Part shown: positions 10,324-42,892 of the stretch, piece by piece
How the letters are laid out: every line of letters starts with the position of its first letter
How positions within the stretch are numbered: position 1 is the first letter of the stretch
Assembly: GCA_965250285.1 (NCBI GenBank)
Contig: OZ252299.1
Location: 5,888,001 to 5,952,000, forward strand
Length of the DNA: 64,000 bases
Reading direction: 5' to 3'
Source of the DNA: Myxococcota bacterium
GTDB lineage: Bacteria > Myxococcota_A > UBA9160 > UBA4427
Position numbers and translations under genes: made by a program
Notes under the pieces: model-generated
Seen by the model: only the letters and a program-made list of their open reading frames with translations
Told to the model about the DNA's origin: nothing
The model's database searches: none

Positions 10324-11709
10324 ATGAAGTCTTTGAAGACACTCAATGGGTTTCGGATCACTGCAGCGATCCTGCTCTGGTCGGTTGCCATGGCATCGGC
10401 CCTCGCGTCAACGGCCCAGGCCGAGATGCTCGACGTCGAGAAGGACGAGCTCAAGTTCGGCTTCATCAAGCTGACCGACTGTGCGCCGCTCGTCATCGCG
10501 AAGGAGCTCGGCTTCTTCGAGGACGAGGGCCTGTTCGTCACCGTCGAGGCGCAGGCGAACTGGAAGATTCTCCTCGACCGGGTCATCGACGGGGAACTCG
10601 ACGGTGCACACATGCTCTCGGGCCAGCCGATCGGCGCGACGATCGGGATCGGCACCCAGGCGCACGTCGTCACCCCCTTCAGCATGGATCTGAACGGCAA
10701 TGGCATCACCGTGTCGAACGAGATCTGGAAGGAGATGAAGAAGAACGATCCGAAGCTCGCCGGGCCGAATCCGCCGCACCCGATCACTGCGGATGGCCTC
10801 GTGCCGATTGTCACCGAGCGCAAGGATCTGGGTGACCCGCTCAAGATGGGGATGGTCTTCCCGGTCTCGACCCACAACTACGAGCTTCGGTACTGGCTGG
10901 CCGCCTCGGGCATCAGCCCCGGCTTCTACACGAAGAACGACACGACGGGAACGACCGACGCCGACGTGCTGCTCTCGGTCACGCCGCCTCCGCAGATGCC
11001 TGCCACCCTCGAGCAGGGGACGATCCAGGGCTACTGCGTGGGCGAGCCTTGGAACCAGCAGGCCGTCTTCAAGGGTATCGGAGTGCCGGTCGTCACGAAC
11101 TACGAGATCTGGAAGAACAACCCCGAGAAGGTCTTCGGCATGACCTCCGAGTTCGTCGAAGCCAATCCGAACACCACCACGGCCATCGTCAAGGCGCTGA
11201 TCCGCGCCGGCAAGTGGCTCGATGCGTCGCCCGAGAACCGCAAGAAGGCAGTCGAGATCCTCGCGCGATCCGAGTACGTCGGGGCCGACGAAGAGGTCAT
11301 CGCGAACAGCATGACGGGCACGTTCGAGTTCGAGCGTGGCGACAAGCGCGAGATGCCCGACTTCAACGTCTTCTTCCGGCATGACGCGACCTACCCGTTC
11401 TACAGCGACGCCGTGTGGTTCCTCACGCAGATGCGACGCTGGGGGCAGATCGGCGAGGAGAAGCCCGACGGCTGGTACGACGAGGTCGCTCGCAAGGTCT
11501 ACAAGCCCGCGATCTACGAGAAGGCGGCAGCGCTTCTCGTTGAAGAGGGGCACCTCACGGCCGACGAAGTACCGAAGACCGACGGCTACAAGCCGCCCAC
11601 CGGCGACTTCATCGACGGGATCGTCTACGACGGCAAGAAGCCCAACGCCTATCTCGCGAGCTTCGAGATCGGCAACCAGGGCAAGCGCAGCATGGCAAGC
11701 GCCAACTGA
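10324..11709 (+). CDS. nrtA: Nitrate ABC transporter substrate-binding protein (NrtA/NasF)
   Basis: Signal peptide; [47 protein letters not shown]. Confidence 0.95.
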
Positions 11710-25070: not shown

Positions 25071-27077
25071 ATGCGCCGTTCGAACCGCCCGCGCCGCACC
25101 CACGCGGGCCTCATTGCCGACCTTCAGATCGCATTCGCGTGTCTCATCGCGCTCATCGTGCCGGCGGGCACCGCGTGGGCGACCGACGACCTGGCCGACA
25201 TGAGCCTCGAAGATCTCATGAACGTCACGGTGACCTCGGCAGCGAAGCGTGAGCAGAACCTGGTCGACGCCGCGGCGGCGATCACGGTGCTCACGCAAGA
25301 AGACATCCGCCGCTCGGGCGCCACGAGCATCCCCGAAGCGCTGCGCCTCGTCCCCGGTCTCAACGTCGCGCGCATCAACTCGAGCCGCTGGGCGATCTCG
25401 GCTCGTGGCTACAACGGTCAATTCGCGAACAAGATGCTGGTGCTGATCGACGGCCGCGTCGTGTACACGCCGCTCTTCGGCGGCGTGTACTGGGACGTTC
25501 AGGACACGATGCTCGAAGACATCGATCGCATCGAGGTCATTCGTGGTCCCGGCGGCACGCTCTGGGGCGCGAACGCGGTGAACGGCGTCATCAACATCAC
25601 GACGAAGAGCGCCAAAGACACCGAGGGCGTGCTCGTCACCGGGATCGCCGGCAATCAGGAATACATCGGCGAGGGCCGCGTCGGCGTGAAGGTCGGCGAC
25701 CACACCGGGTTTCGCGCCTACGGCAAGGGCTTCAAGCGTGAAGCGTTCACGTACCCCGACGTCGTGACGCGTGAGCCGCATGATGCCTGGTGGCAGGGCC
25801 GGGCGGGCGCCCGGCTCGACTCGCAGCTCAGCGAAGACGACCTCTTCACGCTGCAGGGCGACTTCTACAAGGGCAAAGAGCAAGACCCGGGCGGTCTGCT
25901 CACGGGCCCCGTGCCGCCCTTCCCGCCCGACACCGAAGTCAAGGGCGGCAATGTGCTCAGCCGCTGGACCCACACGTTCACCGAGACGCAGTCGCTCGAG
26001 ATGCAGGCGTACTGGGACAACACGCAGCGCACCTGGGCCGGCGTCGACGAGACTCGAAACATGGTCGACGTGCAGGCGCAGCACAACTTTCAGCTCGAGG
26101 GGGGCGGCACCTGGCTCTTCAACTGGGGCACCGAATACACGTGGAACGGCGATGATCTCGTCTCGACCGGCGCGCTGACGTTCGATCCCGACGAGGACGA
26201 CTTCCATCGCGTGAGTGGCTTCGCCCAGGTGCAGTGGAACTACTTCGACGACCGCCTCCAGATCATCGGCGGCAGCAAGCTCGAGTGGAACAACTGGACC
26301 GACTTCGAGTACCAGCCCACCGGCAAGGTGCTCTGGAAGTTCCTCGAAGGGAACGTCGTCTGGGCATCGGTCTCGCGCGCCGTGCGGGCCCCGACCCGCG
26401 TCGAACGCGCGATCCGGGTGCTCACGGTCGTGGGCAACCCCAACGTTCAGTCCGAAGACCTGCTCGCCTACGAGTTCGGCTTCCGAAACTACGTGATCGA
26501 GAACCTGAGCTTCGATCTCGCGCTCTTCTACAACGACTACACCAACTTCTCGGCGATCGAGAACACGGTCGACTTCGCCAACAACATCGATTCGCGGGCC
26601 TATGGCGGCGAGTTCGAGGTGAACTGGAAGCCGCTCGACCAGCTGCGCTTCGTCACCAGCTACGCCTACCTGAGGGTCGAGGACGAGGTGCCGGCGAACA
26701 CCACGCAGGTGTTCGGTACCAACGAGGGCTCGGCACCGCAGCACACGTGGATGATGCGCGGTCTCTGGAGCCTGCCCTGGGCCCCCGTCGAGCTCGACTC
26801 GACCGTCTGGTACGTGGGCAAGTTGACGGGGCGATACGACCCGGTGTACGCGAGCCAGCCGATCGTGAACCCGGCCACCGATCCCATCATCGGTGCGTAC
26901 TGGCGACTCGACGCTCGTGTCGCGTGGCAGGCCCTCGATTGGCTCGGCCTCGAGTTCGCAGCGCAGAACATCACCGACAAGCAGCACGCTGAGTGGGGCG
27001 TGTCCGAAGAGCTGCAGCTCTTCCCCGGCAACTACGTCCCGCGCAGCTACTACGGGAAGGTCACGCTCTCGTTCTGA
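25071..27077 (+). CDS. TonB-dependent receptor (paralog 1)
   Basis: MSLEDLMNVTVTSAAK, ANKMLVLIDGR, IDRIEVIRGPGGTLWGANAVNGVINI; C-terminal F. Confidence 0.95.
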   Translation: MRRSNRPRRTHAGLIADLQIAFACLIALIVPAGTAWATDDLADMSLEDLMNVTVTSAAKREQNLVDAAAAITVLTQEDIRRSGATSIPEALRLVPGLNVARINSSRWAISARGYNGQFANKMLVLIDGRVVYTPLFGGVYWDVQDTMLEDIDRIEVIRGPGGTLWGANAVNGVINITTKSAKDTEGVLVTGIAGNQEYIGEGRVGVKVGDHTGFRAYGKGFKREAFTYPDVVTREPHDAWWQGRAGARLDSQLSEDDLFTLQGDFYKGKEQDPGGLLTGPVPPFPPDTEVKGGNVLSRWTHTFTETQSLEMQAYWDNTQRTWAGVDETRNMVDVQAQHNFQLEGGGTWLFNWGTEYTWNGDDLVSTGALTFDPDEDDFHRVSGFAQVQWNYFDDRLQIIGGSKLEWNNWTDFEYQPTGKVLWKFLEGNVVWASVSRAVRAPTRVERAIRVLTVVGNPNVQSEDLLAYEFGFRNYVIENLSFDLALFYNDYTNFSAIENTVDFANNIDSRAYGGEFEVNWKPLDQLRFVTSYAYLRVEDEVPANTTQVFGTNEGSAPQHTWMMRGLWSLPWAPVELDSTVWYVGKLTGRYDPVYASQPIVNPATDPIIGAYWRLDARVAWQALDWLGLEFAAQNITDKQHAEWGVSEELQLFPGNYVPRSYYGKVTLSF

Positions 27078-27155
27078 CGTCGAACCGATTCGCAGCGGCG
27101 CAGATCGCGCCGAGGGGTCCAGTCGATTCGGCGGCGGTCGAGGTGGAGGTTTGAA

Positions 27156-29120
27156 ATGACCTTGATGCACCGATTCTTCGTCCGCAGCATCGTGTCTGCA
27201 GCGGTCTTGCTCGTGGCGGCCGGCTCGGCTCAGGCCGCCGACGATCTGGCGGACATGAGCCTCGAAGACCTCATGAACGTCACCGTCACGTCGGCGGCAA
27301 AGCGTGAGCAGAACAAATCGGACGCGGCTGCGGCCATCACGGTGCTCACGCAAGAGGACATTCGCCGCTCGGGTGCGACGAGCATCCCCGAGGTGCTTCG
27401 GCTGGTGCCTGGTCTGCAGGTGGCGCGGATCGACGCGCATCGCTGGGCCATCTCGGGTCGCGGCTACAACGGACAGTTCGCAAACAAGATGCTCGTGCTG
27501 ATCGATGGCCGCGTGGTCTACAGCCCGCTCTTCGGTGGCGTGTACTGGGACGTGCAGGACACCGTCATGCACGACATCGACCGGATCGAGGTGATTCGCG
27601 GCCCGGGCGGCACGCTCTGGGGCGCGAATGCCGTGAATGGCGTCATCAACATCACGACGAAGAGCGCCAAGGATACGCACGGTGTGCACGCGATGGGTGC
27701 CGCCGGCAATCAGGAGTACATCGGCGAAGGTCGATACGGCGGCGAGGTCGGCGGGCACACGTCGTACAGGGCCTGGGGCCGGGGCTTCAAGCGTGATGAC
27801 TTCACGATGCCCGATGACGCGACCTACCAGGCTCACGACGGCTGGTGGCAGTGGCGCGTGGGAGCGCGCATCGACTCTCAGCTGACCGAAGATGATCTGG
27901 TCACGCTCCAGGGCGATTTCTACGACGGCCAGGAAGAGGCGACGTCGTACGCTTTTCCGGTCGGGCCCGTCGTCGAGGACAACGATACGACGTATCGGGG
28001 CGGCAACGTGCTCGGGCGCTGGACGCACGAGATCACCGAGAAGCAGTCGCTCGAGATCCAGGCGTACTGGGATCAGACCCAGCGCGATGGCGATACGAAC
28101 GGCGAGACGCGCAACACCGCCGACGTCCAGATCCAGCACGACTTCGTGCTCGAGGGCGGCGGGACGTGGATCTTCAACTGGGGCACCGAGTACTTCTGGA
28201 CCGGTGACGACGTCGCAAACGGCACCGGAACGACCTTCGATCCGACGAAGGAGGACTTCCACCGCGCGAGCGGCTTCGCTCAGGTGCAGTGGAACTACTT
28301 CGAGGATCGCCTGCAGGTGATCGGCGGCACGAAGCTCGAGTGGAACAGCTTCACCGACTTCGAGTACCAGCCCACCGGCCGAGTGCTCGTGAAGCCGATC
28401 GAAGGCAACGTGCTCTGGGGCTCGGTCTCGCGCGCGGTGCGTGCCCCCACGCGCATCGACCGCGACATCTTCTTCGACGCGGTGATCATTCAGGTCTTCG
28501 GCAACAAGAACATCCAGTCGGAAGACCTGCTCGCGTTCGAGTTCGGCTACCGCAATCTGATGCTCGACAACCTGACGGTCGATGTGTCGGCGTTCTTCAA
28601 CCAGTACACCGATCTGGTCGCCCTGAGTGGCACCACGTTCGACAACGGCGGCAAGTCGAAGGCGCGCGGCGTCGAGGTCGAGGTCGCGTGGGCGCCGATC
28701 AAGCCCCTGCGCTTCGTCACAGGCTACACCTTCCTGCGCATGAAGGACGACTTCGCCACGGGCTCCACCCCGATCTTCGGTGCGAACGAGGGCTCGAGCC
28801 CCGAGCACACGTGGATGCTTCGTGGCTTCTGGAATCTGCCGGTCGTGCCGGTCGAGCTCGACAGCACCGTCTGGTACTACGGCAAGCTCACCAGCCGCTT
28901 CGACCCGTCACAGCTGCCCGTCGTCGGTGACCCCGTGCCGGCCTACTGGCGCCTCGATGCGCGCATCGCCTGGCAGGCCCTCGACTGGCTCGGTCTCGAG
29001 TTCGTTGGCCAGAACCTGATCGAGTCGCAGCACATCGAGTGGGGCGAGGGTGTGATCGCGCTCTTCCCGGGCACCTACGTGCCGCGCAGCTACTACGGCA
29101 AGGTGACGCTCACCTTCTAG
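27156..29120 (+). CDS. TonB-dependent receptor (paralog 2)
   Basis: Plug motifs near-identical to paralog 1; ends PRSYYGKVTLTF. Confidence 0.95.
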   Translation: MTLMHRFFVRSIVSAAVLLVAAGSAQAADDLADMSLEDLMNVTVTSAAKREQNKSDAAAAITVLTQEDIRRSGATSIPEVLRLVPGLQVARIDAHRWAISGRGYNGQFANKMLVLIDGRVVYSPLFGGVYWDVQDTVMHDIDRIEVIRGPGGTLWGANAVNGVINITTKSAKDTHGVHAMGAAGNQEYIGEGRYGGEVGGHTSYRAWGRGFKRDDFTMPDDATYQAHDGWWQWRVGARIDSQLTEDDLVTLQGDFYDGQEEATSYAFPVGPVVEDNDTTYRGGNVLGRWTHEITEKQSLEIQAYWDQTQRDGDTNGETRNTADVQIQHDFVLEGGGTWIFNWGTEYFWTGDDVANGTGTTFDPTKEDFHRASGFAQVQWNYFEDRLQVIGGTKLEWNSFTDFEYQPTGRVLVKPIEGNVLWGSVSRAVRAPTRIDRDIFFDAVIIQVFGNKNIQSEDLLAFEFGYRNLMLDNLTVDVSAFFNQYTDLVALSGTTFDNGGKSKARGVEVEVAWAPIKPLRFVTGYTFLRMKDDFATGSTPIFGANEGSSPEHTWMLRGFWNLPVVPVELDSTVWYYGKLTSRFDPSQLPVVGDPVPAYWRLDARIAWQALDWLGLEFVGQNLIESQHIEWGEGVIALFPGTYVPRSYYGKVTLTF

Positions 29121-30859: not shown

Positions 30860-32137
30860 TCACCAGGGGTGCAGCTTGACCGGCATCTCGACGTAGCCCT
30901 TCACGAAGCACGACTTCGTGCGCACGGGCTCACCGACGACCTCGACGAAGCGGAACCGCTTCATGATCTCTTCCCAGATCACGCGCAGCTGGAGCTCGGC
31001 GATGCGGCTGCCCATGCAGAAGTGCACGCCCCAGCCGAACGAGAGGTGCTTCTTCGACTCTTTGCGGTCGATGATGAACGCGTCGGGGTTCTCGATCGCG
31101 TCGGCGTCGCGGTTCGCCGAGACGTACCACATGACGATCTTGTCCCCCTTCTTGATCGACTTGCCGCCGAGCTCGGTGTCCTGGGTGGCGGTGCGGCGCA
31201 TGTGCGCGAGCGGGGTCTGCCAGCGGATGATCTCGTCGACCATCGTCGGAATCACGCTCGGGTCGGCGCGCAGCTTGTCGTACTGATCGGGGTTCTCGTT
31301 CAACGCGAGCACGCCGCCCGAGATCGAGTTGCGGGTGGTGTCGTTGCCGCCGACGATGAGCAGCATCAGCGTGCCGAGGTACGTGACCGGATCGAGATCC
31401 TGGGTCGCGTCGGCGTTGGCCATGGCCGTGATGAAGTCGAGCTTGTCGTTCGGCTTGCCCCGGCGCTCGTGCCAGAGCTTCGTGAAGACGTCGAGACACT
31501 CGAGCAGGCCGGCCTTGCGCTCGTCGGGGCCGATGCCCATGTCGCGCAGCTGGTCGGGACCGGCTGTCGCCAGATCGCTCCAGTAGGTGAGGCGCCGGCG
31601 CGTCTCCCAGTCGAAGTCGAAGAACGTGGCCAGCATGCTGGTCGTCAGCTCGATCGAGACCTTGTCGACCCAGTCGAAGGTCTCGCCGACCGGCAGCGAT
31701 TCGAGGATCTCGATCGCGCGCTGGCGCACGATCGGCTCGAGGACCTTCAGGTTGCGGGGTGACGAGACGGGCTGCACGACCTTGCGGTGCGAGTTGTGTC
31801 GCTCGCCATCCATCGTGATGAAGCCCGCGTTCTGGAGCACGGCATTGGGGGGCGGATTGAAGACCACGATGCCTTCGCCCGAGCAGAAGAGCTCGGGGTT
31901 CTTCTCGACGTGGACGATGTCGTCGAACTTCGTGACGGCCCAGTAGGGGCCGAAGTCGCTGTCGGCGACCCAGTGGATCGGATCTTCCTTGCGAAGCCGC
32001 TCGAAGTAGCCCCAGAGCTCGTTGCTCGTGAACAGCTCGTAGTCGGCGGGGTTGATCCGCTCGAGGGGAAAGGCGTAGGGATCGACGCCGACCTGACCGG
32101 TCGACGTATGGGTCGGCATGTTGACGGCTTCGCTCAT
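30860..32137 (-). CDS. Cytochrome P450, CYP153-like
   Basis: LLIVGGNDTTRNSISGG, EIIRWQTPLAHMRR, HLSFGWGVHFCMG, FDWVDKVSIELT. Confidence 0.92.
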   Translation of the reverse strand: MSEAVNMPTHTSTGQVGVDPYAFPLERINPADYELFTSNELWGYFERLRKEDPIHWVADSDFGPYWAVTKFDDIVHVEKNPELFCSGEGIVVFNPPPNAVLQNAGFITMDGERHNSHRKVVQPVSSPRNLKVLEPIVRQRAIEILESLPVGETFDWVDKVSIELTTSMLATFFDFDWETRRRLTYWSDLATAGPDQLRDMGIGPDERKAGLLECLDVFTKLWHERRGKPNDKLDFITAMANADATQDLDPVTYLGTLMLLIVGGNDTTRNSISGGVLALNENPDQYDKLRADPSVIPTMVDEIIRWQTPLAHMRRTATQDTELGGKSIKKGDKIVMWYVSANRDADAIENPDAFIIDRKESKKHLSFGWGVHFCMGSRIAELQLRVIWEEIMKRFRFVEVVGEPVRTKSCFVKGYVEMPVKLHPW

Positions 32138-32210
32138 GTCTCGCTCCTCAGCGTGCTGCACGTGCGTACGGCGGCATTTCAGTCGCGGCCGACGAGGGCC
32201 ACGCGTTCGA

Positions 32211-32855
32211 CTACACGGCCCGGGGCCCGTTCATGCCGAGCAGCCGCTCGGCGATGGCAACGGTGTCGGCGACGAGCATCTCCATGCGCTCGGCCGAGAG
32301 GTGGTCGTCGGGCAGGTCGGCGACGAAGTGCGGCAGGGCGGCGACGTAGAAGAGCACCGTGCCCGCGATCGCACTGAAGAAGTGATAGGGCTCGTTGCGC
32401 ACGGGCTGGATGTCGCCGCTGCGCACGCCCTCTTCGAAGAGCGCGACGATCTGACCGAGCAGCGGGTTCGTCTCGCGCTCGACGTCGCGGTCGCCGGTCA
32501 TCGCCTGGCGCAGCGCGATGCTTGCCAGGGCGGGGCGCACGGCGATCGACTGAGCGGCGGCGCGTACGAGCGCCACGAGCCGTTGGCTGGGCGGCGCATC
32601 GGATTCGACGGCCTGGGCCACCGAGCTCAGCATCTCGGTGCTGAGATCTTCGATCACGGCGCGGTAGAGCTCTCGTTTGCCGCCGTAGTGGTAGAGGATC
32701 GCCGACCCGACCATGCCGATGTCGTCGGCGATGTCGTCGAGGCGCGTCTGGTCGAAGCCCGATTCGGCGAATCGACGCTCGGCTGCTGCCAGGATCTGGC
32801 GGCGGGTGCGCTCGGCCTTGGGCAGCCGGGGTGTGCGGGCAGTCGCTGTGCTCAA
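32211..32855 (-). CDS. TetR/AcrR family regulator
   Basis: TRRQILAAAERRFAESGFDQTRLDDIA...ILYHYGGKRELY; TTG start inferred. Confidence 0.9.
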   Translation of the reverse strand: MSTATARTPRLPKAERTRRQILAAAERRFAESGFDQTRLDDIADDIGMVGSAILYHYGGKRELYRAVIEDLSTEMLSSVAQAVESDAPPSQRLVALVRAAAQSIAVRPALASIALRQAMTGDRDVERETNPLLGQIVALFEEGVRSGDIQPVRNEPYHFFSAIAGTVLFYVAALPHFVADLPDDHLSAERMEMLVADTVAIAERLLGMNGPRAV

Positions 32856-32873
32856 GCGGGGCTCCGTCTCACG

Positions 32874-32982
32874 TTTTGAGTTGGTACTCAAAAATGAATC
32901 GGGGGTCAAATCGGGCCATGAGGGGGCTCTGAGCGCCGGTCCCGCGGGGGCTTCCATTGACTGAGTGAGTTGAAATCAACTC
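32874..32982. promoter_or_regulatory. Two palindromic candidate TetR operators
   Basis: TTTTGAGT-TGGT-ACTCAAAA (32874-32893) and GAGTTGA-AA-TCAACTC (32967-32982), sharing GAGTTG. Confidence 0.6.
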
Positions 32983-33138
32983 GATTCAATCTCGGCCAGA
33001 GGTCTTCCAGATGCCTGATTTGGTTGGTCTTTTGCTCTCGCTGCGGGCTGTCTTGAGTCGATGCGCGCGTTTCATTTGAGATCGCGTTCGGCCGATCAAA
33101 CCCCTGGCGCCTGCTGCGCCGCCCCACCAGGTGGACCC

Positions 33139-34749
33139 ATGCCGCTCGAGCGACCGGCCATCAAAGCCTTTCCCAGCGCCCTCGATCAGGGCGCGTTCGT
33201 CGCCTACTTCCTGGGCGGCGTGGTGCCGCTCGCCGCGCTCGGGGTCGTCGTCGAACGCTACCTGCTCTCGCCCGAGATCGAGCGGCTCGACGACCTGTCG
33301 GCCGCCGGCCTGGTCTCGCTGGTCGCGGGCATCGCGGTGCTCTCGCTCTTCAGCTTCCTCATGCTGCGCCGGCTCGTGGTGCGCGCGATCGAGCAGAACC
33401 TCGAGCCCATCTACCACGACGTGCTGACGGGTCTGCCCAACCGGCTGCTCTTTCAGCAGCGCCTCGAGCAGGCGGTCGAGCACGCGACCGAGACGGGCGA
33501 TCTCGTCGCGGTGTGCTTCCTCGACCTCGACGGCTTCAAGCGCATCAACGACAGCCTCGGCCACGCGGTGGGCGACGAGCTGATTCGACAGGCGGCGCAG
33601 CGCCTGCAGGACAACCTTCGCAGCACCGACGCGGTCGCGCGTTCGCGCAGCGAGGTCGCTTCGGCCGACCCGTCGGTCTCGCGCCTCGGCGGCGATGAGT
33701 TCACGTTCGTCATCCCCGACCTCTCGAGTGCGCACGACGCCAGCTCGGCCGTGTGGCGCGTGCTCGAGGCGATCCGCAAGCCCTTCACGCTCGAAGGCCG
33801 AGAGGTGACGGTGACCGCGAGCGCCGGCATCGCGCTCTTTCCCGACGACGCCGACGAACCGCAGACGCTGCTGCGCAACGCCGACATCGCGATGTACTGG
33901 GCCAAGAGCTGCGGCCGCAACAACTATCAGTTCTTCGCACAGTCGATGGATTCAGAGGGCCAGCGCCGACTCAACATCGAGCGCTGCCTGCGCCGCTCGC
34001 TCGAACGGTACCCGTTCTCGTTGATCTACCAGCCGATCCGCGACGCCGAGAGCACGCAGATCGTCGCCGTCGAAGCGCTGCTGCGCTGGGAAGACCCCGA
34101 GCTCGGTGCGGTGGGCCCCGCCGAGTTCATCCCGGTCGCCGAAGAGGCCGGCCTCATCGCCCCGCTCGGCGAATGGGTGCTGCGCACCGCCTGCGCGCAG
34201 GTCAAGGCCTGGCAGGATGCCGGCCTGCGCGCGCCGCGCATGTGTGTGAACGCGTCGGGCATCCAGATCAAGCACCCGAGCTGGGTGGCCCGCGTGCGCT
34301 CGATCCTCGAGCGCCTCGATCTGAGCCCCGGGAGCCTCGAGCTCGAGATCACCGAGAGCACGATCCTCGGCGACGGCGACGGCACGCGCGAGACGCTGCA
34401 CGAGCTGAGCGCGATGGGCGTGACCCTCGCCCTCGACGACTTCGGCACCGGCTACTCGTCGCTGCGCTATCTGCACGACTTTCCCATCGATCGCGTCAAG
34501 ATCGACCAGGCGTTCGTGCAGAGCCTCGGCACCGAAATGGGCCGCTCGCTGATCCTGTCGGTGATCTCGATGGCACACGGGCTGGGCATCACCGCCATCG
34601 CCGAGGGCGTCGAGACCGAAGACCAGGCGACCTTCCTGCGCGACGCCGGTTGCGACGAGCTCCAGGGCTTCCTCTTCAGCAAGCCCGTGCCGGCCGCAGA
34701 GCTGACCACCCATCTCGAAGCCGAGAAGGAAGCGGGGGGCGGGGCGTAG
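33139..34749 (+). CDS. Membrane-anchored diguanylate cyclase/phosphodiesterase (GGDEF-EAL)
   Basis: Two TM segments, [38 protein letters not shown]. Confidence 0.95.
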
Positions 34750-34752
34750 GCG
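34710..34752 (+). repeat. 43-bp direct repeat, copy 1 (3' end of the GGDEF-EAL gene)
   Basis: CCATCTCGAAGCCGAGAAGGAAGCGGGGGGCGGGGCGTAGGCG; 42/43 identical to 36816-36858. Confidence 0.9.
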
Positions 34753-34862
34753 ACTCACACCCAAGCAACGCTTCACCTGAACGACCGCCGCAGGGCTGCC
34801 CAAGGCCAGCCCCGCGACGATCGCCGAGGCGCCTGCGGCAAGCGCCTCGGAGGCGCTTGCGG

Positions 34863-35855
34863 CTAGCGCCTCATGCCTGAACGGCGCGAACGCATTCGGG
34901 CGAGGGATGAACCGGCGGGTTCGCCCTCGGCCGGGCTCGCGAAGGCGGCCAGGTGGACGACGCGGCCATCGGCCACGAGGCCAGCGGCGACGAGCGTGCT
35001 CGACTGCGTGCGCACCTCGGTTCCGGCCCCCAGCGCGGGCGTCACATCGAACGCGGCAGTGCGCACCTGCGTCACGAAGTCGCGCGCGTCGTTCTCTGTC
35101 GGGTTGTTTCGATGTCGGGCGACGGTTTCGAGTGCGTCGATGGCATAGCTGCGGATCAGCTTCGGCAGCATGTCGGCCATAGTCTCGGGACAGTCGAACA
35201 GCTCGAGCCCTTCGACGCGATCATTGATCGCGAACACCACACCCGTCTGTCCGGGCCTGGCTTCGAACGCACGCACGTAGTCGTCGAGTCGCGTCGCATG
35301 TGATTCGTAGACATCGCTCATGGCGCTGGTGCGTGACGACACTCGCATGCGTCGCGACTTCGACTCGATGTCACTCCACACTGCCCCCTGATCGGCGCCG
35401 GGTAGGCCGCACTCCTCCATCGACGTGGCCACCGAGCGCATCTTGGCTCGGCGCCCACCCGAGAAGTGCATGCGATCCGAGGGCGCCATCTCGACGCCGC
35501 GGTCCGACCAGCGGCCGGCCTCGACACAGGTCACGGGGATCCGGGTCGTCGCGCCCGCCGGTGCGAGCACGGTGACGTTGGCGGTGCGGTTCTGTTTGGC
35601 GCCGACCAGTTCTTCCCCCTCGAAGACGAGCACCGGCTCTTTGCCGCCGTTGTCGACCGCGAGCTCGGACACGCTGCCGCCGGTCGAGATCTCTCGAACG
35701 CGCACTGAACCCGACTCGATGCCGGCGCCCAGAGTGATGTAGTCGCGGTGGTACCCGCTCTGCCCGAGCAGGGGAAAGGCGGCGAGGTTCAGGAACCGAT
35801 CCGGCTCCCCGAGAGCGGCCTGCTCGAGGGTCTGTGCAATGACGTCCATGGTCAT
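34863..35855 (-). CDS. DUF6569/ARPP-1 family protein
   Basis: GSVSEL, GEELVGAKQNR, IPVTCVEAGRW, DQGAVW, KLIRSYAIDA, VHLAAF; family recognised from memory. Confidence 0.8.
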   Translation of the reverse strand: MTMDVIAQTLEQAALGEPDRFLNLAAFPLLGQSGYHRDYITLGAGIESGSVRVREISTGGSVSELAVDNGGKEPVLVFEGEELVGAKQNRTANVTVLAPAGATTRIPVTCVEAGRWSDRGVEMAPSDRMHFSGGRRAKMRSVATSMEECGLPGADQGAVWSDIESKSRRMRVSSRTSAMSDVYESHATRLDDYVRAFEARPGQTGVVFAINDRVEGLELFDCPETMADMLPKLIRSYAIDALETVARHRNNPTENDARDFVTQVRTAAFDVTPALGAGTEVRTQSSTLVAAGLVADGRVVHLAAFASPAEGEPAGSSLARMRSRRSGMRR

Positions 35856-35896
35856 CCTCCTCTGACTGGGACCGGAGCCCCACACTGAGCTCCGAT

Positions 35897-35965
35897 TTGA
35901 CAGTAGTCGTCAGTAATCGGCACCATATCGACAGTCAAAAAAGAAGTCAACAGTTGTTGACAGTG
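35897..35965. promoter_or_regulatory. Divergent promoter/operator region with repeated GACAGT motifs
   Basis: TTGACAGT twice, TCGACAGT, and palindrome GTCAACA-GT-TGTTGAC (35946-35961). Confidence 0.6.
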
Positions 35966-35990
35966 GGCAGTCTGGCGCGAAGCTGAGGCC

Positions 35991-36758
35991 ATGGAGCGCG
36001 AAGAGCGGACCTACACCCTCAGCGAGATCGCGGCCAAGACCGGGTTCGACCAGCGCACGATCGCCTACTACGTGCAGGAGGGGCTGCTGCCCCGGGTTGG
36101 CCGCCGCGGCCGATCGACCCGCTACGCGAAGCCGTTCGTCGACCGGCTCGTCTTCATTCGCCGCGTCCGCGACCTTCAGGATTCGGGGCGAATGCGCTCG
36201 GTAACGCTCGGCGAGATTCGCAACGTGCTCGACGACCTGTCGCCCCGCGAGGTTCACGACCTGACGCGCAAGGGCGCCGACGAAGCGAGACTGCAGGAGC
36301 TGTTCGAACCGGATGAGCTGCCGGGCGCGCCCGAGTTCGAGGAGGCGGCCATCGGCGCAGCTGAGGGGATCGAGGTCGACGAGAAGCCGACGGACGCCCG
36401 GGTTGGCAGCGCGCGAGGGCGGCGCGCGCGACTCTTGCAGAGATTCGAGGGAGCGCGCGCAGGCGAGGCCGAGGAGGCCCCGCAACCGGCTCGCATCGGC
36501 TCGTCACGAGCGGGCCGCAGCCGCATGGCGACGGCGCAGGCCATGGCCGATGTCGATCGAATTCAGCAGTTGCTGACGCAGATCGAAGCGTACGCGCAGC
36601 AGGAGCGCGGCGAGCGCGACGACGACTCGACCCACGAACGAGTGACCCGCGTGCCGATTGGCGACTCAACCTATCTCTCGGTCAAGGATCTCGGCGAAGA
36701 GCACGCGGCCCTCGTGGAAGAGTTGGCGAGGCTGCTTCGCGGGAGGCTCGGGGACTGA
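35991..36758 (+). CDS. MerR-like HTH regulator
   Basis: YTLSEIAAKTGFDQRTIAYYVQEGLLP...Y...RLVFIRR; C-terminal ERVTRVPIGD motif. Confidence 0.85.
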   Translation: MEREERTYTLSEIAAKTGFDQRTIAYYVQEGLLPRVGRRGRSTRYAKPFVDRLVFIRRVRDLQDSGRMRSVTLGEIRNVLDDLSPREVHDLTRKGADEARLQELFEPDELPGAPEFEEAAIGAAEGIEVDEKPTDARVGSARGRRARLLQRFEGARAGEAEEAPQPARIGSSRAGRSRMATAQAMADVDRIQQLLTQIEAYAQQERGERDDDSTHERVTRVPIGDSTYLSVKDLGEEHAALVEELARLLRGRLGD

Positions 36759-36815
36759 GTTCGAGACCTCGTTGCGATTCGGCTGCGAACTTCAGTCGTG
36801 TTGTTGGCCTTCTCT

Positions 36816-36858
36816 CCATCTCGAAGCCGAGAAGGAAGCGGGCGGCGGGGCGTAGGCG
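36816..36858 (+). repeat. 43-bp direct repeat, copy 2
   Basis: CCATCTCGAAGCCGAGAAGGAAGCGGGCGGCGGGGCGTAGGCG; both copies encode [12 protein letters not shown]. Confidence 0.9.
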
Positions 36859-37093
36859 GACCCCGCGGAGGGCCGCCGCCCTCGCCGTGAAGCACGCTCG
36901 CACGATCTTCGAGCCGATCGACGCCGTCCCGGGCGGTCGCGTCTGTGACACCGTCACGAGTTGATCATAGTTCATCCATTAATCAAGTCGTATAATCAGG
37001 GTGCGACCTCGTTGGGTCGCTGGCTGACTCAGGCGCCCGTTGCGGCGGGCAATCGGCCCTCCTTCAGCGAGGCCGAACCGCGGAGGCCGACCG

Positions 37094-39172
37094 ATGGCTC
37101 ACTCGACTGTTCGTTCTCACCGATCCTGCCGTTCCCCTTGGCGCTCTCTCTTGCTCCCCGGCCTGATCGCGACACTCGCGCTGGTCGCCGGGTCGAGCTC
37201 GGCCTTCGTCAGCGAACGCGTGGTCTATCGCGAGGATTTCGTGGGCGAGACCGCATACGAGACGACGCCCGAGATCGATGAGATCGCCGGCGTCGGTCTC
37301 GTCGGCCTCGACACCGGAGGCCCGGGCGATGGGCCGGTGCTGACCGGCAGCGCCGCGCGGGCCACCATCGCCGCAGCCGGTCCCACGGTGCAGTGGGTGT
37401 TTCTGCCCTTCACATCGTTCGGTGCGGGCCCGGCGCGACTCAGGACGACCGCATCGAGCTGGTCGACGGCTTCGGAGGGCGCAGGCCTCGTTGGGCTCGA
37501 AGTCGAGCTCGAGGCCGCCAGCGGAAGCGCGCGGGTCAGCGCGCTCGTCGAGATCGAGAACGATCCGGGTGGGACGACGGTCGGCTTCGGTGGCTTCGTG
37601 CTGGGGCAGAACCCGGCGGCGGGCCCTGGCTCGAGCCTCTCGCTGACGCTCACGCCCGCCGAGCTCGCCGTGATCGAGGCAGGTGGGGCGTTCGAGATCG
37701 AGCTGACCGTCGACCGAGATGCAGCGACGGCGACCGCCACGATCGAGGTGAGCGGCCAGCCGCCTCAGTCACTCGGGCCGATCTCGATCGACGCGACGAC
37801 GGCCGGGCTCGAGATCGAGTCGGCCGCGATGGTGCTCGCCCAGCTCTTCGGCGTCGATCCATTTCAGGTCGACTTCGACGCGTTCGAGATCAGCCGCGTC
37901 TACACCACGTCGTTCACGGTCGACACGCTCGCCGATGAGGTCGATGCCGCCATCGGCGACAGCGCGTGCGCCACGTCGACCGGCTTCTGCAGCCTGCGTG
38001 CGGCGATCCAGGAGTCGAACGCAATCGCGGGGCCGGGTGAGGTGATCGTACCGGCGGGCGAGTACGTGACGACGATCGCTGGCACCGGCGACGACGCGGC
38101 TGCGACCGGCGACCTCGACATCACCGACGCGCTGACGCTCAGAGGGGCCGGGCGAGACGTCACGACCATCGACGGCGGGGGCCTCGATCGGGTGCTCCAC
38201 GTTCTGTTTGCATTCGATCTCGTTCACGCGCAGGTCATGGATCTCGCCGTCCGCAACGGAGCCGCCGTGCTGGCGGACAACGCCGTCGGCGGTGGCATCG
38301 AGAACAGCGGCCGGCTCGATCTGCTGCGCTGCGAGGTCTCGGCCAATCGCGCGAATCTGGGCGGCGGCATCCTGAACCGCGAGCGGCTGTTCATGGACGA
38401 CTGCATCGTGCGGGAGAATGCCGCCGAGAACCTCGGCTTCACGAATGCGTTCGCCGGCGGCATCGCGAGTGCGTCGTCGTCGGCCGGGGGCGGCGATTTC
38501 GTGAGCGCGTTCATTCGCAACAGCGCCATCGTCGACAATGAAGCGTTCGTCACGGGCGGCCTCGAGTTCGGCAACGCCAGCTTTGCGAACGTCTCGAATA
38601 CGACGATCAGCGGCAACACGAGCCCGCAGGTCACGGTGCGCAGCACCGACGTCACGCTGCGCCATGTGACGATCGCCGATGGCTTCGGGGTCGGTCTTCA
38701 GGCCTCTTCGTTCGATCCGACGAAGGAGCTCGAGATCGTCAACAGCGCCATCTCGGACTTCACCGCGTGCAACCTCAGCACGACGGCGCCGATGACGATC
38801 CTCCTCGCCGGTCACAACGCGAGCAGCGATACGAGCTGCGGCTTCGTCGGTGCCGGTGACGTCGAGGGCGTGCCGCTCGAACTCGAACCCCTCGCCGACG
38901 TTGGGGGCACCCTGGCTCACGTGCCGATGCCTTCGAGCCCGCTCATCGACAGCGGCGACGACGCCGAGTGCGCCTTCGCCGACCAGCGCGGTGAGCTGCG
39001 CCCGCAGGACGGCGACGCGAGCGGCACGGCCGAGTGCGACATCGGAGCGATCGAGGTGCCCGAGCCCGGGCTCGGCGCGCTCACGGCGAGTGGACTGATC
39101 GCGTTGTGGGCGCTGCGAGCACGGCGAGTGCGGCGACGCGATCGAGGTGGGCTGGGGCGCCATTCCGCGTGA
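37094..39172 (+). CDS. CSLREA/choice-of-anchor-Q surface protein with PEP-CTERM sorting signal
   Basis: Signal peptide; CSLRAAIQE, GDLDI, beta-helix GGGI repeats, SPLIDSG, DQRG...CDIGAIE; VPEP-TM-basic tail. Confidence 0.88.
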   Translation: MAHSTVRSHRSCRSPWRSLLLPGLIATLALVAGSSSAFVSERVVYREDFVGETAYETTPEIDEIAGVGLVGLDTGGPGDGPVLTGSAARATIAAAGPTVQWVFLPFTSFGAGPARLRTTASSWSTASEGAGLVGLEVELEAASGSARVSALVEIENDPGGTTVGFGGFVLGQNPAAGPGSSLSLTLTPAELAVIEAGGAFEIELTVDRDAATATATIEVSGQPPQSLGPISIDATTAGLEIESAAMVLAQLFGVDPFQVDFDAFEISRVYTTSFTVDTLADEVDAAIGDSACATSTGFCSLRAAIQESNAIAGPGEVIVPAGEYVTTIAGTGDDAAATGDLDITDALTLRGAGRDVTTIDGGGLDRVLHVLFAFDLVHAQVMDLAVRNGAAVLADNAVGGGIENSGRLDLLRCEVSANRANLGGGILNRERLFMDDCIVRENAAENLGFTNAFAGGIASASSSAGGGDFVSAFIRNSAIVDNEAFVTGGLEFGNASFANVSNTTISGNTSPQVTVRSTDVTLRHVTIADGFGVGLQASSFDPTKELEIVNSAISDFTACNLSTTAPMTILLAGHNASSDTSCGFVGAGDVEGVPLELEPLADVGGTLAHVPMPSSPLIDSGDDAECAFADQRGELRPQDGDASGTAECDIGAIEVPEPGLGALTASGLIALWALRARRVRRRDRGGLGRHSA

Positions 39173-39311
39173 CGTGACCCGTCGTACGTGCGGCATCGCA
39201 GTCGGTCGGTCATCTGCCGTACCGGGCTTGCTTCGGCGCGACCCGGGTTTAGGTTGCTCCCGTAAGCGTTTTGGTCGACTCGAAGACGAGTCACGACACA
39301 GGTCGTTTCAG

Positions 39312-39704
39312 ATGACGACAGAAGCGCACCCGAACATTGCCGTGCTTCAGCGACTCGATCTCTCCCGCCTGGGGGAGGACGCAGACCTCTTCGCCGGCGA
39401 ATTCGTCTGGCACTTCTTCAATCCCAGGTTGCCCGATCTCGCGGGTGACTATGCGGGTGTAGATGGCCTCCAGACCTTCTTCGAGAAGCTCGGAGCGGCG
39501 ACGGGCGGCACGTTTCGAGTCGAGCCGCTCTCGGTCATCCCGATCGGGGACGAGTTTCTGGTCGTACACGCCCGGGATACCCTGACCCTCGAAGGGCAGT
39601 CCATCGAGCTCGACGCCGTGGTGGTCTGGCGCATCGTGGCCGGCCAGATCGCCGAGGCGTGGGACATCCCCGGGATCCACACGATCCGTCCGGCTGCGCC
39701 ATGA
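39312..39704 (+). CDS. SnoaL/NTF2-like protein
   Basis: FVWH...LAGDYAG...FF...VVWRIVAGQIAEAWD. Confidence 0.8.
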   Translation: MTTEAHPNIAVLQRLDLSRLGEDADLFAGEFVWHFFNPRLPDLAGDYAGVDGLQTFFEKLGAATGGTFRVEPLSVIPIGDEFLVVHARDTLTLEGQSIELDAVVVWRIVAGQIAEAWDIPGIHTIRPAAP

Positions 39705-39777
39705 CGCGCCGGCGCAGCGTCGCTTCGCCCGGAAGTCGTCGTCCGGGCCTGTCTCGGACGCAGGGAGGCCGCGTCGC

Positions 39778-40761
39778 ATGAGGATCCTCGTCTACGGCGC
39801 GGGCAACATCGGCTGTCTCTATGCCGCGCTGCTCAGTCAAGGCGGTCACGACGTTTCGGTTCTCGCGCGCGGCCACCGTCTCGACGCGATCGACGGCGAC
39901 GGCATCGTGCTCGAGCGCTTCGCGACGGGGGAACGGTCGGCCACGCGGGTGCGGACGATCTCGTCGCTCGCGGCCGACGACGCCTACGACTTCGTCCTCG
40001 TCTCGATGGGGCGAGAGCACGTCCATGACGCGCTCCCCGCTCTGGCCAGCAACTGCTCGCCCAGCGTGATCTTCTTCGGCAACAACGTCGTGGGGTCCAA
40101 GCCTTTCGTCGAGGCGCTCGGCGTCCACCGTGTGCTGCTCGGCTTTCCCGGCGCGGCGGGGATCCCCAGCGACGGGGCCATTCGCTACGTGATCCTGGCC
40201 AAGGCCGACCAGCCGACGACTCTGGGCGAGCCCGATGGCGGCGAATCGGAGCGGGTGCGCGCCATCGCGTCGGTCTTCGAGGGGGCTGGCTTCCCCGTCG
40301 CCGTCTCGCCCCGCATGGATGCCTGGCTGAAGACACACGCAGCCGAGATCCTGCCGACGGCGTACGCGCTCTATGCGGCGGGGGGCGACGTCGCGAGGCT
40401 TTCGCGCACGCGCGACGCGCTCGTCCTCGCGGTGAGGGGGATTCGCGAGGGCTACAGCGTGCTCCGCGCCGCGGGCGTTTCGATCGATCCGCCCAGCCAC
40501 CGGGTGTTCGATTGGTTGCCCGAAGCCCTGCTGGCGCCGACGATGAGACGGATGGTCTCGGGCGAATCCTGGCTGATCAAGATCGGCCACGCGAACGCGG
40601 CCCGAGAAGAGATGCGTTTGCTGGCGGGCGACTTCGGCGCGCTGACCCGCAGCACAGGTGTGGAGACGCCCGTGCTTGATCGGCTCTCGGCCCATCTCGA
40701 TCGGGCCGTGCCGCCCATCGCGGATGGGCGCCGCGAGATCCGCCCGAGATGGTGGCGTTGA
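39778..40761 (+). CDS. Ketopantoate reductase (ApbA/PanE) family protein
   Basis: MRILVYGAGNIGCLYA, LLGFPGAAG, MDAWLKTHAA. Confidence 0.85.
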   Translation: MRILVYGAGNIGCLYAALLSQGGHDVSVLARGHRLDAIDGDGIVLERFATGERSATRVRTISSLAADDAYDFVLVSMGREHVHDALPALASNCSPSVIFFGNNVVGSKPFVEALGVHRVLLGFPGAAGIPSDGAIRYVILAKADQPTTLGEPDGGESERVRAIASVFEGAGFPVAVSPRMDAWLKTHAAEILPTAYALYAAGGDVARLSRTRDALVLAVRGIREGYSVLRAAGVSIDPPSHRVFDWLPEALLAPTMRRMVSGESWLIKIGHANAAREEMRLLAGDFGALTRSTGVETPVLDRLSAHLDRAVPPIADGRREIRPRWWR

Positions 40762-42816: not shown

Positions 42817-42892
42817 TGGAGCCGACGCGCGGACTCGAACCGCGGACCTGCTCATTACGAGTGAGCTGCTCTACCAGCTGAGCTACGTCGGC
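42817..42892 (-). tRNA. tRNA-Thr(CGT)
   Basis: GCCGACGTAGCTCAGCTGGTAGAGCAGCTCACTCGTAATGAGCAGGTCCGCGGTTCGAGTCCGCGCGTCGGCTCCA; 76-nt cloverleaf, anticodon CGT, encoded CCA. Confidence 0.97.

Follow-up and report, generated by a model that had tools for sequence, protein, structure and literature searches.

A MerR/ARPP-1 gene pair between two copies of a GGDEF-EAL gene end in a Myxococcota bacterium: a candidate case of integrase-free capture

Here we describe a short insert, holding a divergent MerR/ARPP-1 gene pair, that stands behind an intact GGDEF-EAL (cyclic di-GMP) gene of a Myxococcota bacterium and is bracketed by two copies of that gene's 3' end. The genome is a single contig of 6.25 Mb (G000:C1 in the coordinates below), and the window is the 64,000-nt stretch of it that was analysed (OZ252299.1, positions 5,888,001-5,952,000); positions are those of the window unless given as genome positions. 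The anatomy of the locus, and its recurrence at other genes of the same genome, suggest that DNA of a related bacterium was captured by ordinary recombination.

Results

A gene pair between two copies of a gene end

The features of the locus are as follows.

33139..34749, plus strand: GGDEF-EAL (cyclic di-GMP) gene, 536 aa, intact; PF00990 E 2e-46, PF00563 E 2e-70; motifs present
34710..34752, plus strand: repeat copy 1, the tail of the intact gene; starts with an imperfect dyad
34823..34876, no strand: hairpin overlapping the ARPP-1 stop, between convergent genes; -40.9 kcal/mol, z -3.84 against 200 shuffles; single-copy in the genome
34863..35849, minus strand: ARPP-1 (DUF6569) gene, 328 aa, intact; PF20208 E 4e-93
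35922..35962, minus strand: palindrome and promoter-like site; promoter-like match 9/12 pointing at ARPP-1, 0.1 expected in shuffles
35991..36758, plus strand: MerR-family helix-turn-helix (HTH) regulator, 255 aa; PF13411 (MerR_1) E 3e-9; conserved C-terminal segment
36759..36815, no strand: right end of the insert, 57 bp, non-coding; no second match in the genome; unlike the left inner end
36816..36858, plus strand: repeat copy 2, a non-coding, stranded copy of the gene tail, presumably followed by recipient DNA

The direct repeat is 43 bp long with sharp edges. Its copies are offset by 2106 bp and identical at 42 of 43 positions, and the sole mismatch (G34737 versus C36843) is synonymous (GGG/GGC). 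Coordinates and BLAST thus bear out an earlier reading made from the letters alone (the original prediction), which had described such a repeat of the gene's last codons with four flanking bases; the count of four is right, and their placement is mended here, the repeat being composed of 1 nt upstream, the last 12 codons, TAG and 3 nt downstream. With the TAG at 34747-34749 lying inside copy 1, the repeat spans the stop codon. Genome-wide BLAST returned the second copy at E 7e-16, and the remaining rows shown were at most 17 nt long, at E of at least 0.15. Because only the second copy is significant, the repeat, with exactly two copies in 6.25 Mb, is neither a chance match nor a dispersed element. 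The imperfect dyad at its start (34710-34729; 8-bp arms matching at 7/8, 4-bp spacer) is of a kind met at 0.86% of random genome positions, and its hairpin z is not significant.

Short-read contigs reproduce this arrangement. One contig from run X1 covers 31667-40000 with zero differences and contigs of X2 and X3 span each repeat copy, so that both junctions and the mismatch recur across three public runs. All three belong to one study and may include the source sample; they therefore rule out mis-assembly, which the original prediction had named as a way to be wrong, but do not amount to independent occurrences, and as assembled contigs they lose rare variants.

Between the copies lie 2,063 bp with ARPP-1 (minus) and the MerR-type HTH gene (plus) head to head. 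That these are the only genes enclosed, with no integrase, also agrees with the original prediction: by Pfam neither protein has a recombinase or transposase domain. The cargo contains no nuclease or methylase, and no ARG, rhodanese-phosphatase, WYL, HIRAN or deacetylase gene; PADLOC gave only an HTH match to mad1. ARPP-1 scores 312.6 bits against PF20208 (cut-off 27), a family that plasmid annotations call DUF6569. It is full length in an alignment of 46 homologues, with Q86, C108 and Q154 conserved, and is the sole family member found in the genome. The MerR-type protein is likewise full length in an alignment of 50 homologues. The hairpin beside ARPP-1 is likely terminator-like.

The insert has terminal inverted repeats at chance level only (1545 of 2000 shuffles score as well), its direct terminal repeats are also at chance level, and its inner ends show no mutual similarity above chance and no copies elsewhere in the genome. 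A family of stop-codon miniature inverted-repeat transposable elements was considered and rejected, the post-stop sequence at the locus being without other genome copies. Codon scores of the module lie in the 5th-10th percentile and that of the host gene at about the 90th, on approximate gene calls from a codon-score script. Tetranucleotide content is ordinary (54th percentile). Low codon scores together with ordinary tetranucleotides fit a GC-rich, related donor.

Further gene-tail duplications in the genome

Self-comparison of the genome for direct repeats of at least 28 nt and at least 80% identity, 0.3-60 kb apart, found 778, of which 691 lie in an integron array and were dropped. Among the 87 remaining, 15 are two-copy and not within genes at both ends. 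Four of these 15, the focal repeat included, are stranded copies of gene 3' tails in unrelated genes, against 0 stranded 5' heads (the numbers are small). The other 11 rows are one part of locus B, one tRNA-Val island with an integrase, and nine paralogues, intragenic or intergenic repeats. The three companion loci are listed here.

Locus A, G000:C1:769741-788950, patatin gene: repeat of 255 bp, 250/255 (98%), ending exactly at TGA; 19 kb, six genes
Locus B, G000:C1:4542074-4564453, gene without a name: repeat of 89 bp, 82/89 (92%); 12 metabolic genes, 12.4 kb
Locus D, G000:C1:2914889-2918301, presumably ettA, from its ABC-F sequence: repeat of 345 bp, 88%; one gene

Relative to the stop, the repeats at the four loci end at 0, +26, -4 and +3 nt; an end within 5 nt of the stop would have a chance of 4% per event if ends were spread evenly over spacers. 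No integrase was found in the four inserts by Pfam or from integrase and resolvase positions, one 493-residue N-terminal part and unnamed ORFs being without a Pfam test or match.

Locus B is the clearest mechanistic snapshot. The last part of its insert is a truncated beta-propeller gene, 83% identical to an allele that stands whole 10 kb further along; at the joint, GGCGAG (6 nt) is common to both parents. At locus D, too, the last part of the insert is a truncated allele (77%) of a gene that lies whole 2.4 kb further along, and a 3-nt GCT is shared at the joint. The intact gene at D combines a host-like body with a tail of rare codons; in the stranded copy the start is divergent and the tail resembles that of relatives. 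The copies differ by 31 synonymous and 10 non-synonymous changes, with about 95 identical bases between. Such a structure is expected after one crossover with a foreign allele, although locus D also lies at an attachment-site-like (att-like) hotspot. The synonymous share of copy differences is 31/41 at D, 3/5 at A, 2/3 at B and 1/1 at the focal locus. No truncated-allele partner was found at the right end of the insert at locus A or the focal locus. In 5 relatives, neither locus A nor locus B has a syntenic counterpart.

Within the family, insertions recur at the 3' end of ettA, which is a hotspot with tail copies in three genomes (this one, G001 at L174:4216-4514 and G002 at L176:1760-2070), with no integrase in the stretches read. 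Those in G001 and G002 are preceded by a common 131-bp arm (78% identical) that is absent from G000, and the G001 copy encloses a lone sulfatase gene.

Three smaller observations concern these loci. The cargo of locus A has low codon scores and includes a 2,376-aa RHS protein with a TcdB_toxin_midN domain and an FGE-sulfatase-domain protein, with no integrase seen. Run X2 carries a 4-bp insertion variant at L143:5222 (locus B). In the relative G005 (C26:177306-181672), a GGDEF-EAL homologue lies 1.1 kb from ettA and convergent with it.

Searches for target reuse and an empty site

The same-genus orthologue of the GGDEF-EAL protein is 82% identical from residue 1. Its locus has one gene end, a different tail and no module, and neither flank is syntenic; the duplicated tail is poorly conserved even inside the genus. 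Behind 17 GGDEF-EAL homologues, with at least 6.8 kb of downstream DNA in 11 and just 2.2 kb for the same-genus orthologue, there was no tail copy of at least 20 nt (0/17), three showing chance-level matches of 10-18 nt. At the orthologue loci of relatives G001, G002, G005, G025 and G034, only the GGDEF-EAL gene is matched among 13 window proteins. A conspecific genome was sought among relatives by DNA (41 genomes) and by protein (68 family genomes) and none was found, and the repeat pattern had 0 matches in metagenome contigs. The contigs of the three runs list no empty-site joint, excision joint or circle at the focal locus, and no empty-site joint at locus B.

The module is patchy in distribution. 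Of 201 class genomes, 30 have an ARPP match, which reaches 56% identity or more in just 2, and the same-genus genome (83% complete) showed none. The objection, foreseen in the original prediction, that the module might be syntenic in all relatives does not apply, and neither do its other two, a dispersed repeat and an assembly artefact. A MerR profile run over 401 phylum genomes matched in the bacterium's own genome only, G119, a carrier described below, presumably being outside that draw; a single-protein GTDB scan gave one context, which is unrelated. Plasmids yielded 3 distant ARPP-1-type matches (22-32% identity), and viral contigs and phages no match to the module.

Flanking repeats were sought at 80 metagenome ARPP loci and at genome loci, many too short for the purpose. 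Among homologous MerR/ARPP pairs with both flanks, 0 of 7 have a target-type repeat, two partial matches being dispersed palindromes. Besides the focal locus, four ARPP loci were flagged, none of them a gene-tail duplication: the repeat at L091 is half of a palindromic dispersed repeat, that at L071 is the 18-bp core of a dispersed palindrome, and L054 has two 25-bp matches at 88%. The fourth, L139, has a 43-bp, 91% intergenic direct repeat (775-817 and 11177-11219), 10.4 kb apart, around a 10-kb block with an ARPP gene, no MerR and no gene end.

Conservation and a putative operator of the MerR/ARPP-1 pair

The same divergent regulator stands at 13 of the best 80 metagenome ARPP loci (many others being short or more distant), and the family member G119 also has a divergent MerR/ARPP pair (locus L062 is the same sequence). 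The spacer between the two genes holds an operator-like palindrome, TGTCAA-N3-CTGTTGAC, at 35962-35946, overlapping a sigma70-like -35 box (35950) toward ARPP-1. In homologous spacers the motif TGTCAA-N3/4-(C/G)TGTTGAC is exact in 9 of 14 and present with at most 2 changes in 11 of 14, counts that are partly circular as the motif was derived from that alignment; in this genome the palindrome is exact just once. Since it overlaps a -35-like box aimed at ARPP-1, autoregulation is likely: the palindrome over the ARPP-1 promoter is the likely binding site of the MerR-type HTH protein, and the two genes would then form an autoregulated pair.

Neighbours of homologous pairs vary (PIN toxins, AAA-DUF4143, nicotinamide adenine dinucleotide (NAD) salvage genes, transporters). 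The pair appears mobile-prone. Linked ARG and phosphatase genes were found neither in the insert nor among 25 scanned neighbours of homologous pairs, one neighbour having ordinary rhodanese domains. At locus L074 (1317-3223), nicotinate phosphoribosyltransferase and isochorismatase-family (nicotinamidase-like) genes lie 1.5 kb from the pair, a possible NAD link. At L062 (11034-11735) and L068 (1496-2173), a similar-sized third gene with a DTG motif and no Pfam match follows ARPP; it is absent from the focal insert. A structural model of ARPP-1 (predicted local distance difference test score 72) had no Foldseek match at E of 0.001 or below and a best VIA Z of 4.6, which indicates neither a known nor a new fold.

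Discussion

We put at roughly 55% the probability that the MerR/ARPP-1 block is a one-off, integrase-free insertion from a related bacterium in which the block followed the gene's stop, so that the two copies of the repeat would be two alleles. By this model, a donor fragment would have brought in the donor's version of the gene tail together with the ARPP-1/MerR pair and a further 57 bp. Its far end would then have been joined illegitimately 40 nt before the stop, either by circularisation of the fragment or straight onto the chromosome, leaving the putative illegitimate joint at 36815/36816. A homologous single crossover in common gene sequence would have fixed the fragment, keeping the gene whole and stranding the displaced tail downstream, the copies being two alleles and not a copied target. 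The repeat would end 3 nt past the stop because homology between donor and recipient stops there.

One crossover in the 3' part of a gene plus one illegitimate joint is the simplest account for all four loci. Capture by this route would account for the variable repeat length, the unrelated targets, the ends at the stop and the synonymous differences, and the truncated foreign alleles at B and D, with 6- and 3-nt microhomology at their joints, point to capture of a relative's DNA. There is laboratory precedent. In E. coli, linear DNA that had been trimmed closed into a circle again and entered the target by a single crossover, which duplicated 109-950 bp of it; this took place ten times more often than homology-facilitated illegitimate recombination (HFIR), whose joints had 3-10 bp of microhomology, by the account in PMC3240628. 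Our loci share with those events one homologous and one illegitimate junction, a partial duplication of the locus and, at B and D, microhomology in the 3-10 bp range; they differ in that the published system used laboratory plasmids at very low frequency, that HFIR proper gives deletions, and that the focal repeat is shorter (PMC3240628). The genome has comEC and dprA, but of 14 control genomes 10 have the former and 11 the latter, so that their presence says little.

Several points weigh against this interpretation. Neither an empty site nor a donor was found. The ordinary tetranucleotide content of the module does not mark it as foreign. A single mismatch cannot separate alleles from later drift, and 6 of the 9 differences at A, B and the focal locus together are synonymous, an excess that selection on the coding copy alone could similarly yield. 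A repeat of 43 bp gives a homologous crossover little room, and the anchor would probably have to reach further upstream. HFIR normally pairs insertion with deletion, and here there is duplication, as in the circle route (PMC3240628). Locus D is mixed evidence, in that the 131-bp arm common to two relatives at ettA looks like a site-specific hotspot, and the companion loci need not share the focal mechanism.

A broader version of the capture model can be put forward only tentatively, namely that this lineage routinely gains genes by recombinase-free capture anchored in gene tails. Chromosome fragments from relatives would close into circles at microhomologies and enter by crossover at the 3' ends of genes, so that the donor's variable region comes to stand before the resident one; MerR/ARPP-1 would then be an undescribed autoregulated unit against phage or ADP-ribose stress that spreads in this way. 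If so, loci B and D would be natural snapshots of the mechanism behind insertion with long target duplication.

Of the alternatives, the best placed is that of an islet between attL and attR sites, in which a circle bearing 43 bp of the gene end was inserted by a site-specific recombinase that acted in trans or has since disappeared; we regard it as unlikely. A direct 3' duplication that restores the gene is classic att anatomy, shared with the tRNA-Val island of this genome and its 38-bp repeat, and an end at the stop is likewise to be expected from it. The 8-bp-arm dyad sits right at the start of the repeat, a coincidence whose 0.86% per position becomes roughly 5% when an offset of a few nt is allowed. 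The genome has six tyrosine recombinase domains above the cut-off and one resolvase (genome position 1416607). At ettA, the G001 sulfatase alone between gene and tail copy, behind an arm common with G002, indicates that integrase-less remnants exist in the family. Unlike such elements, the focal locus has no integrase (the closest tyrosine recombinase, at genome position 6031573, is some 107 kb distant), no reuse of the target in homologues, no common arms and no excision seen: tail copies are absent behind all 17 GGDEF-EAL homologues, target-type repeats are absent around all 7 homologous pairs, the inner ends have nothing in common above chance and no copies in the genome, and no joint skipping the module is listed in the run contigs. 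The duplicated tail, moreover, is poorly conserved within the genus. Spacers of tyrosine recombinase sites are usually 6-8 bp, longer than the 4 bp of the dyad, and loci A, B and D are without such a dyad. The original prediction's alternative wording, a module left by recombination, agrees with these results, whereas its minimal islet mobilised in trans with the c-di-GMP gene as attachment site mostly falls, given also the lack of terminal repeats and of the module in viruses and phages.

Next in order, and improbable as well, is a true target duplication, in which foreign DNA was patched into a staggered double-strand break, fill-in copied 43 bp, and the mismatch arose later. It needs no synteny in a donor, and 42/43 identity fits a recent copy; an insert below 20 kb and a repeat above 30 bp agree with the sizes set by Furuta et al. 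2010, where repeats often lie over start or stop sites (PMC2853133). That break-patch route was proposed for restriction-modification (R-M) genes (PMC2853133), whereas the present cargo has no nuclease or methylase. Ku for end joining was not found in this genome (95% complete), a weak signal. Break patching would also leave unexplained why three of the four repeat ends lie within 4 nt of a stop, and why truncated alleles stand at B and D.

Two further explanations carry very little weight. That the gene end was duplicated locally in tandem and the DNA in between later replaced or eroded, or else that the assembly is in error, is highly improbable: tandem paralogues do lie nearby (25-29 kb), but the insert holds no other duplicated remnant, and contigs of three runs speak against an artefact at both junctions and the mismatch. 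A relic of a long-direct-repeat transposon of the IS1549/IS1634 type, or a non-autonomous derivative with passengers, is largely refuted, as the insert has no transposase and no terminal inverted repeats and the genome no match to DUF4277, which we take to be the IS1634-type label. Variable direct repeats of 8-514 bp are what IS1549 and IS1634 make (PMC2266710), and this is what had recommended it.

In structural kind, the anatomy matches the known "insertion with long target duplication" (Nobusato et al. 2000; Furuta, Abe & Kobayashi 2010, PMC2853133), and it is not a member of the R-M set. The focal locus shares with the cases in PMC2853133 an insert under 20 kb, a repeat over 30 bp, the absence of a mobile-element gene, a spanned stop, an intact target gene and conflict-type cargo. 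It differs in carrying ARPP-1 and an HTH gene in place of R and M genes, and in companion loci that suggest two alleles as against a copied target. Taken alone, the focal locus is of modest value, as it adds another example to a pattern known from work of 2000-2010. Checkable evidence that "target duplications" can be donor and recipient alleles brought together by ordinary recombination, a point that the discussion in PMC2853133 leaves open, comes from the companion loci, where donor alleles are truncated and joints lie at microhomology.

As to the cargo, Iyer et al. 2022 (PMC9503650) describe ARPP as a predicted Cys/Gln enzyme that acts on ribose moieties; its genes belong to conflict systems built around ARG or stand beside HIRAN, WYL or deacetylase genes. 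ARPP-1 of this locus is predicted to act on ribose or ADP-ribose adducts in conflict settings. It resembles the neighbourhoods in PMC9503650 in its conserved Cys and Gln and in belonging to a conserved two-gene unit, one known form having a WYL transcription factor. It is unlike them in that the partner is a divergent MerR-type HTH protein with a conserved palindrome, and that the ARG, rhodanese-phosphatase, WYL, HIRAN and deacetylase genes are missing. The main text of PMC9503650, Figure 7c and the supplements apart, has no mention of a MerR partner for ARPP; we found no other ARPP paper, and no experimental test of the enzyme, in the literature searched. The divergent MerR/ARPP-1 context with its palindrome was thus not found in print and is a minor addition, which gives a simple two-gene handle on a predicted enzyme.

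Other islands and repeats in the genome

Elsewhere, a 41-kb island at tRNA-Val (G000:C1:1379169-1420076) has its 38-bp att repeat at 1379212 and 1420039; one of its ends carries a degenerate tyrosine integrase, and a serine resolvase lies close to the opposite end. At genome positions 5463134-5490000, a tyrosine recombinase followed by many attC-like repeats forms an array that we take, from its sequence features, to be of integron type. Members of a related non-coding repeat family bracket a 22-kb block by tRNA-Gly (3186946-3209797; 272 bp, 93%) and a 2.4-kb block (2525112-2527566). A 43-bp, 88% intergenic repeat surrounds an 11.5-kb copper/heavy-metal efflux cluster of low codon score (2590671-2602272), about 3 kb from the tmRNA. 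A candidate tRNA-Thr island at 42817-42892 of the window was set aside, having no displaced 3' copy. In the window itself, 25071-29120 holds two tandem paralogues, TonB-dependent-receptor-like from the appearance of their sequence, 70-85% identical in blocks and spaced 2055 bp apart.

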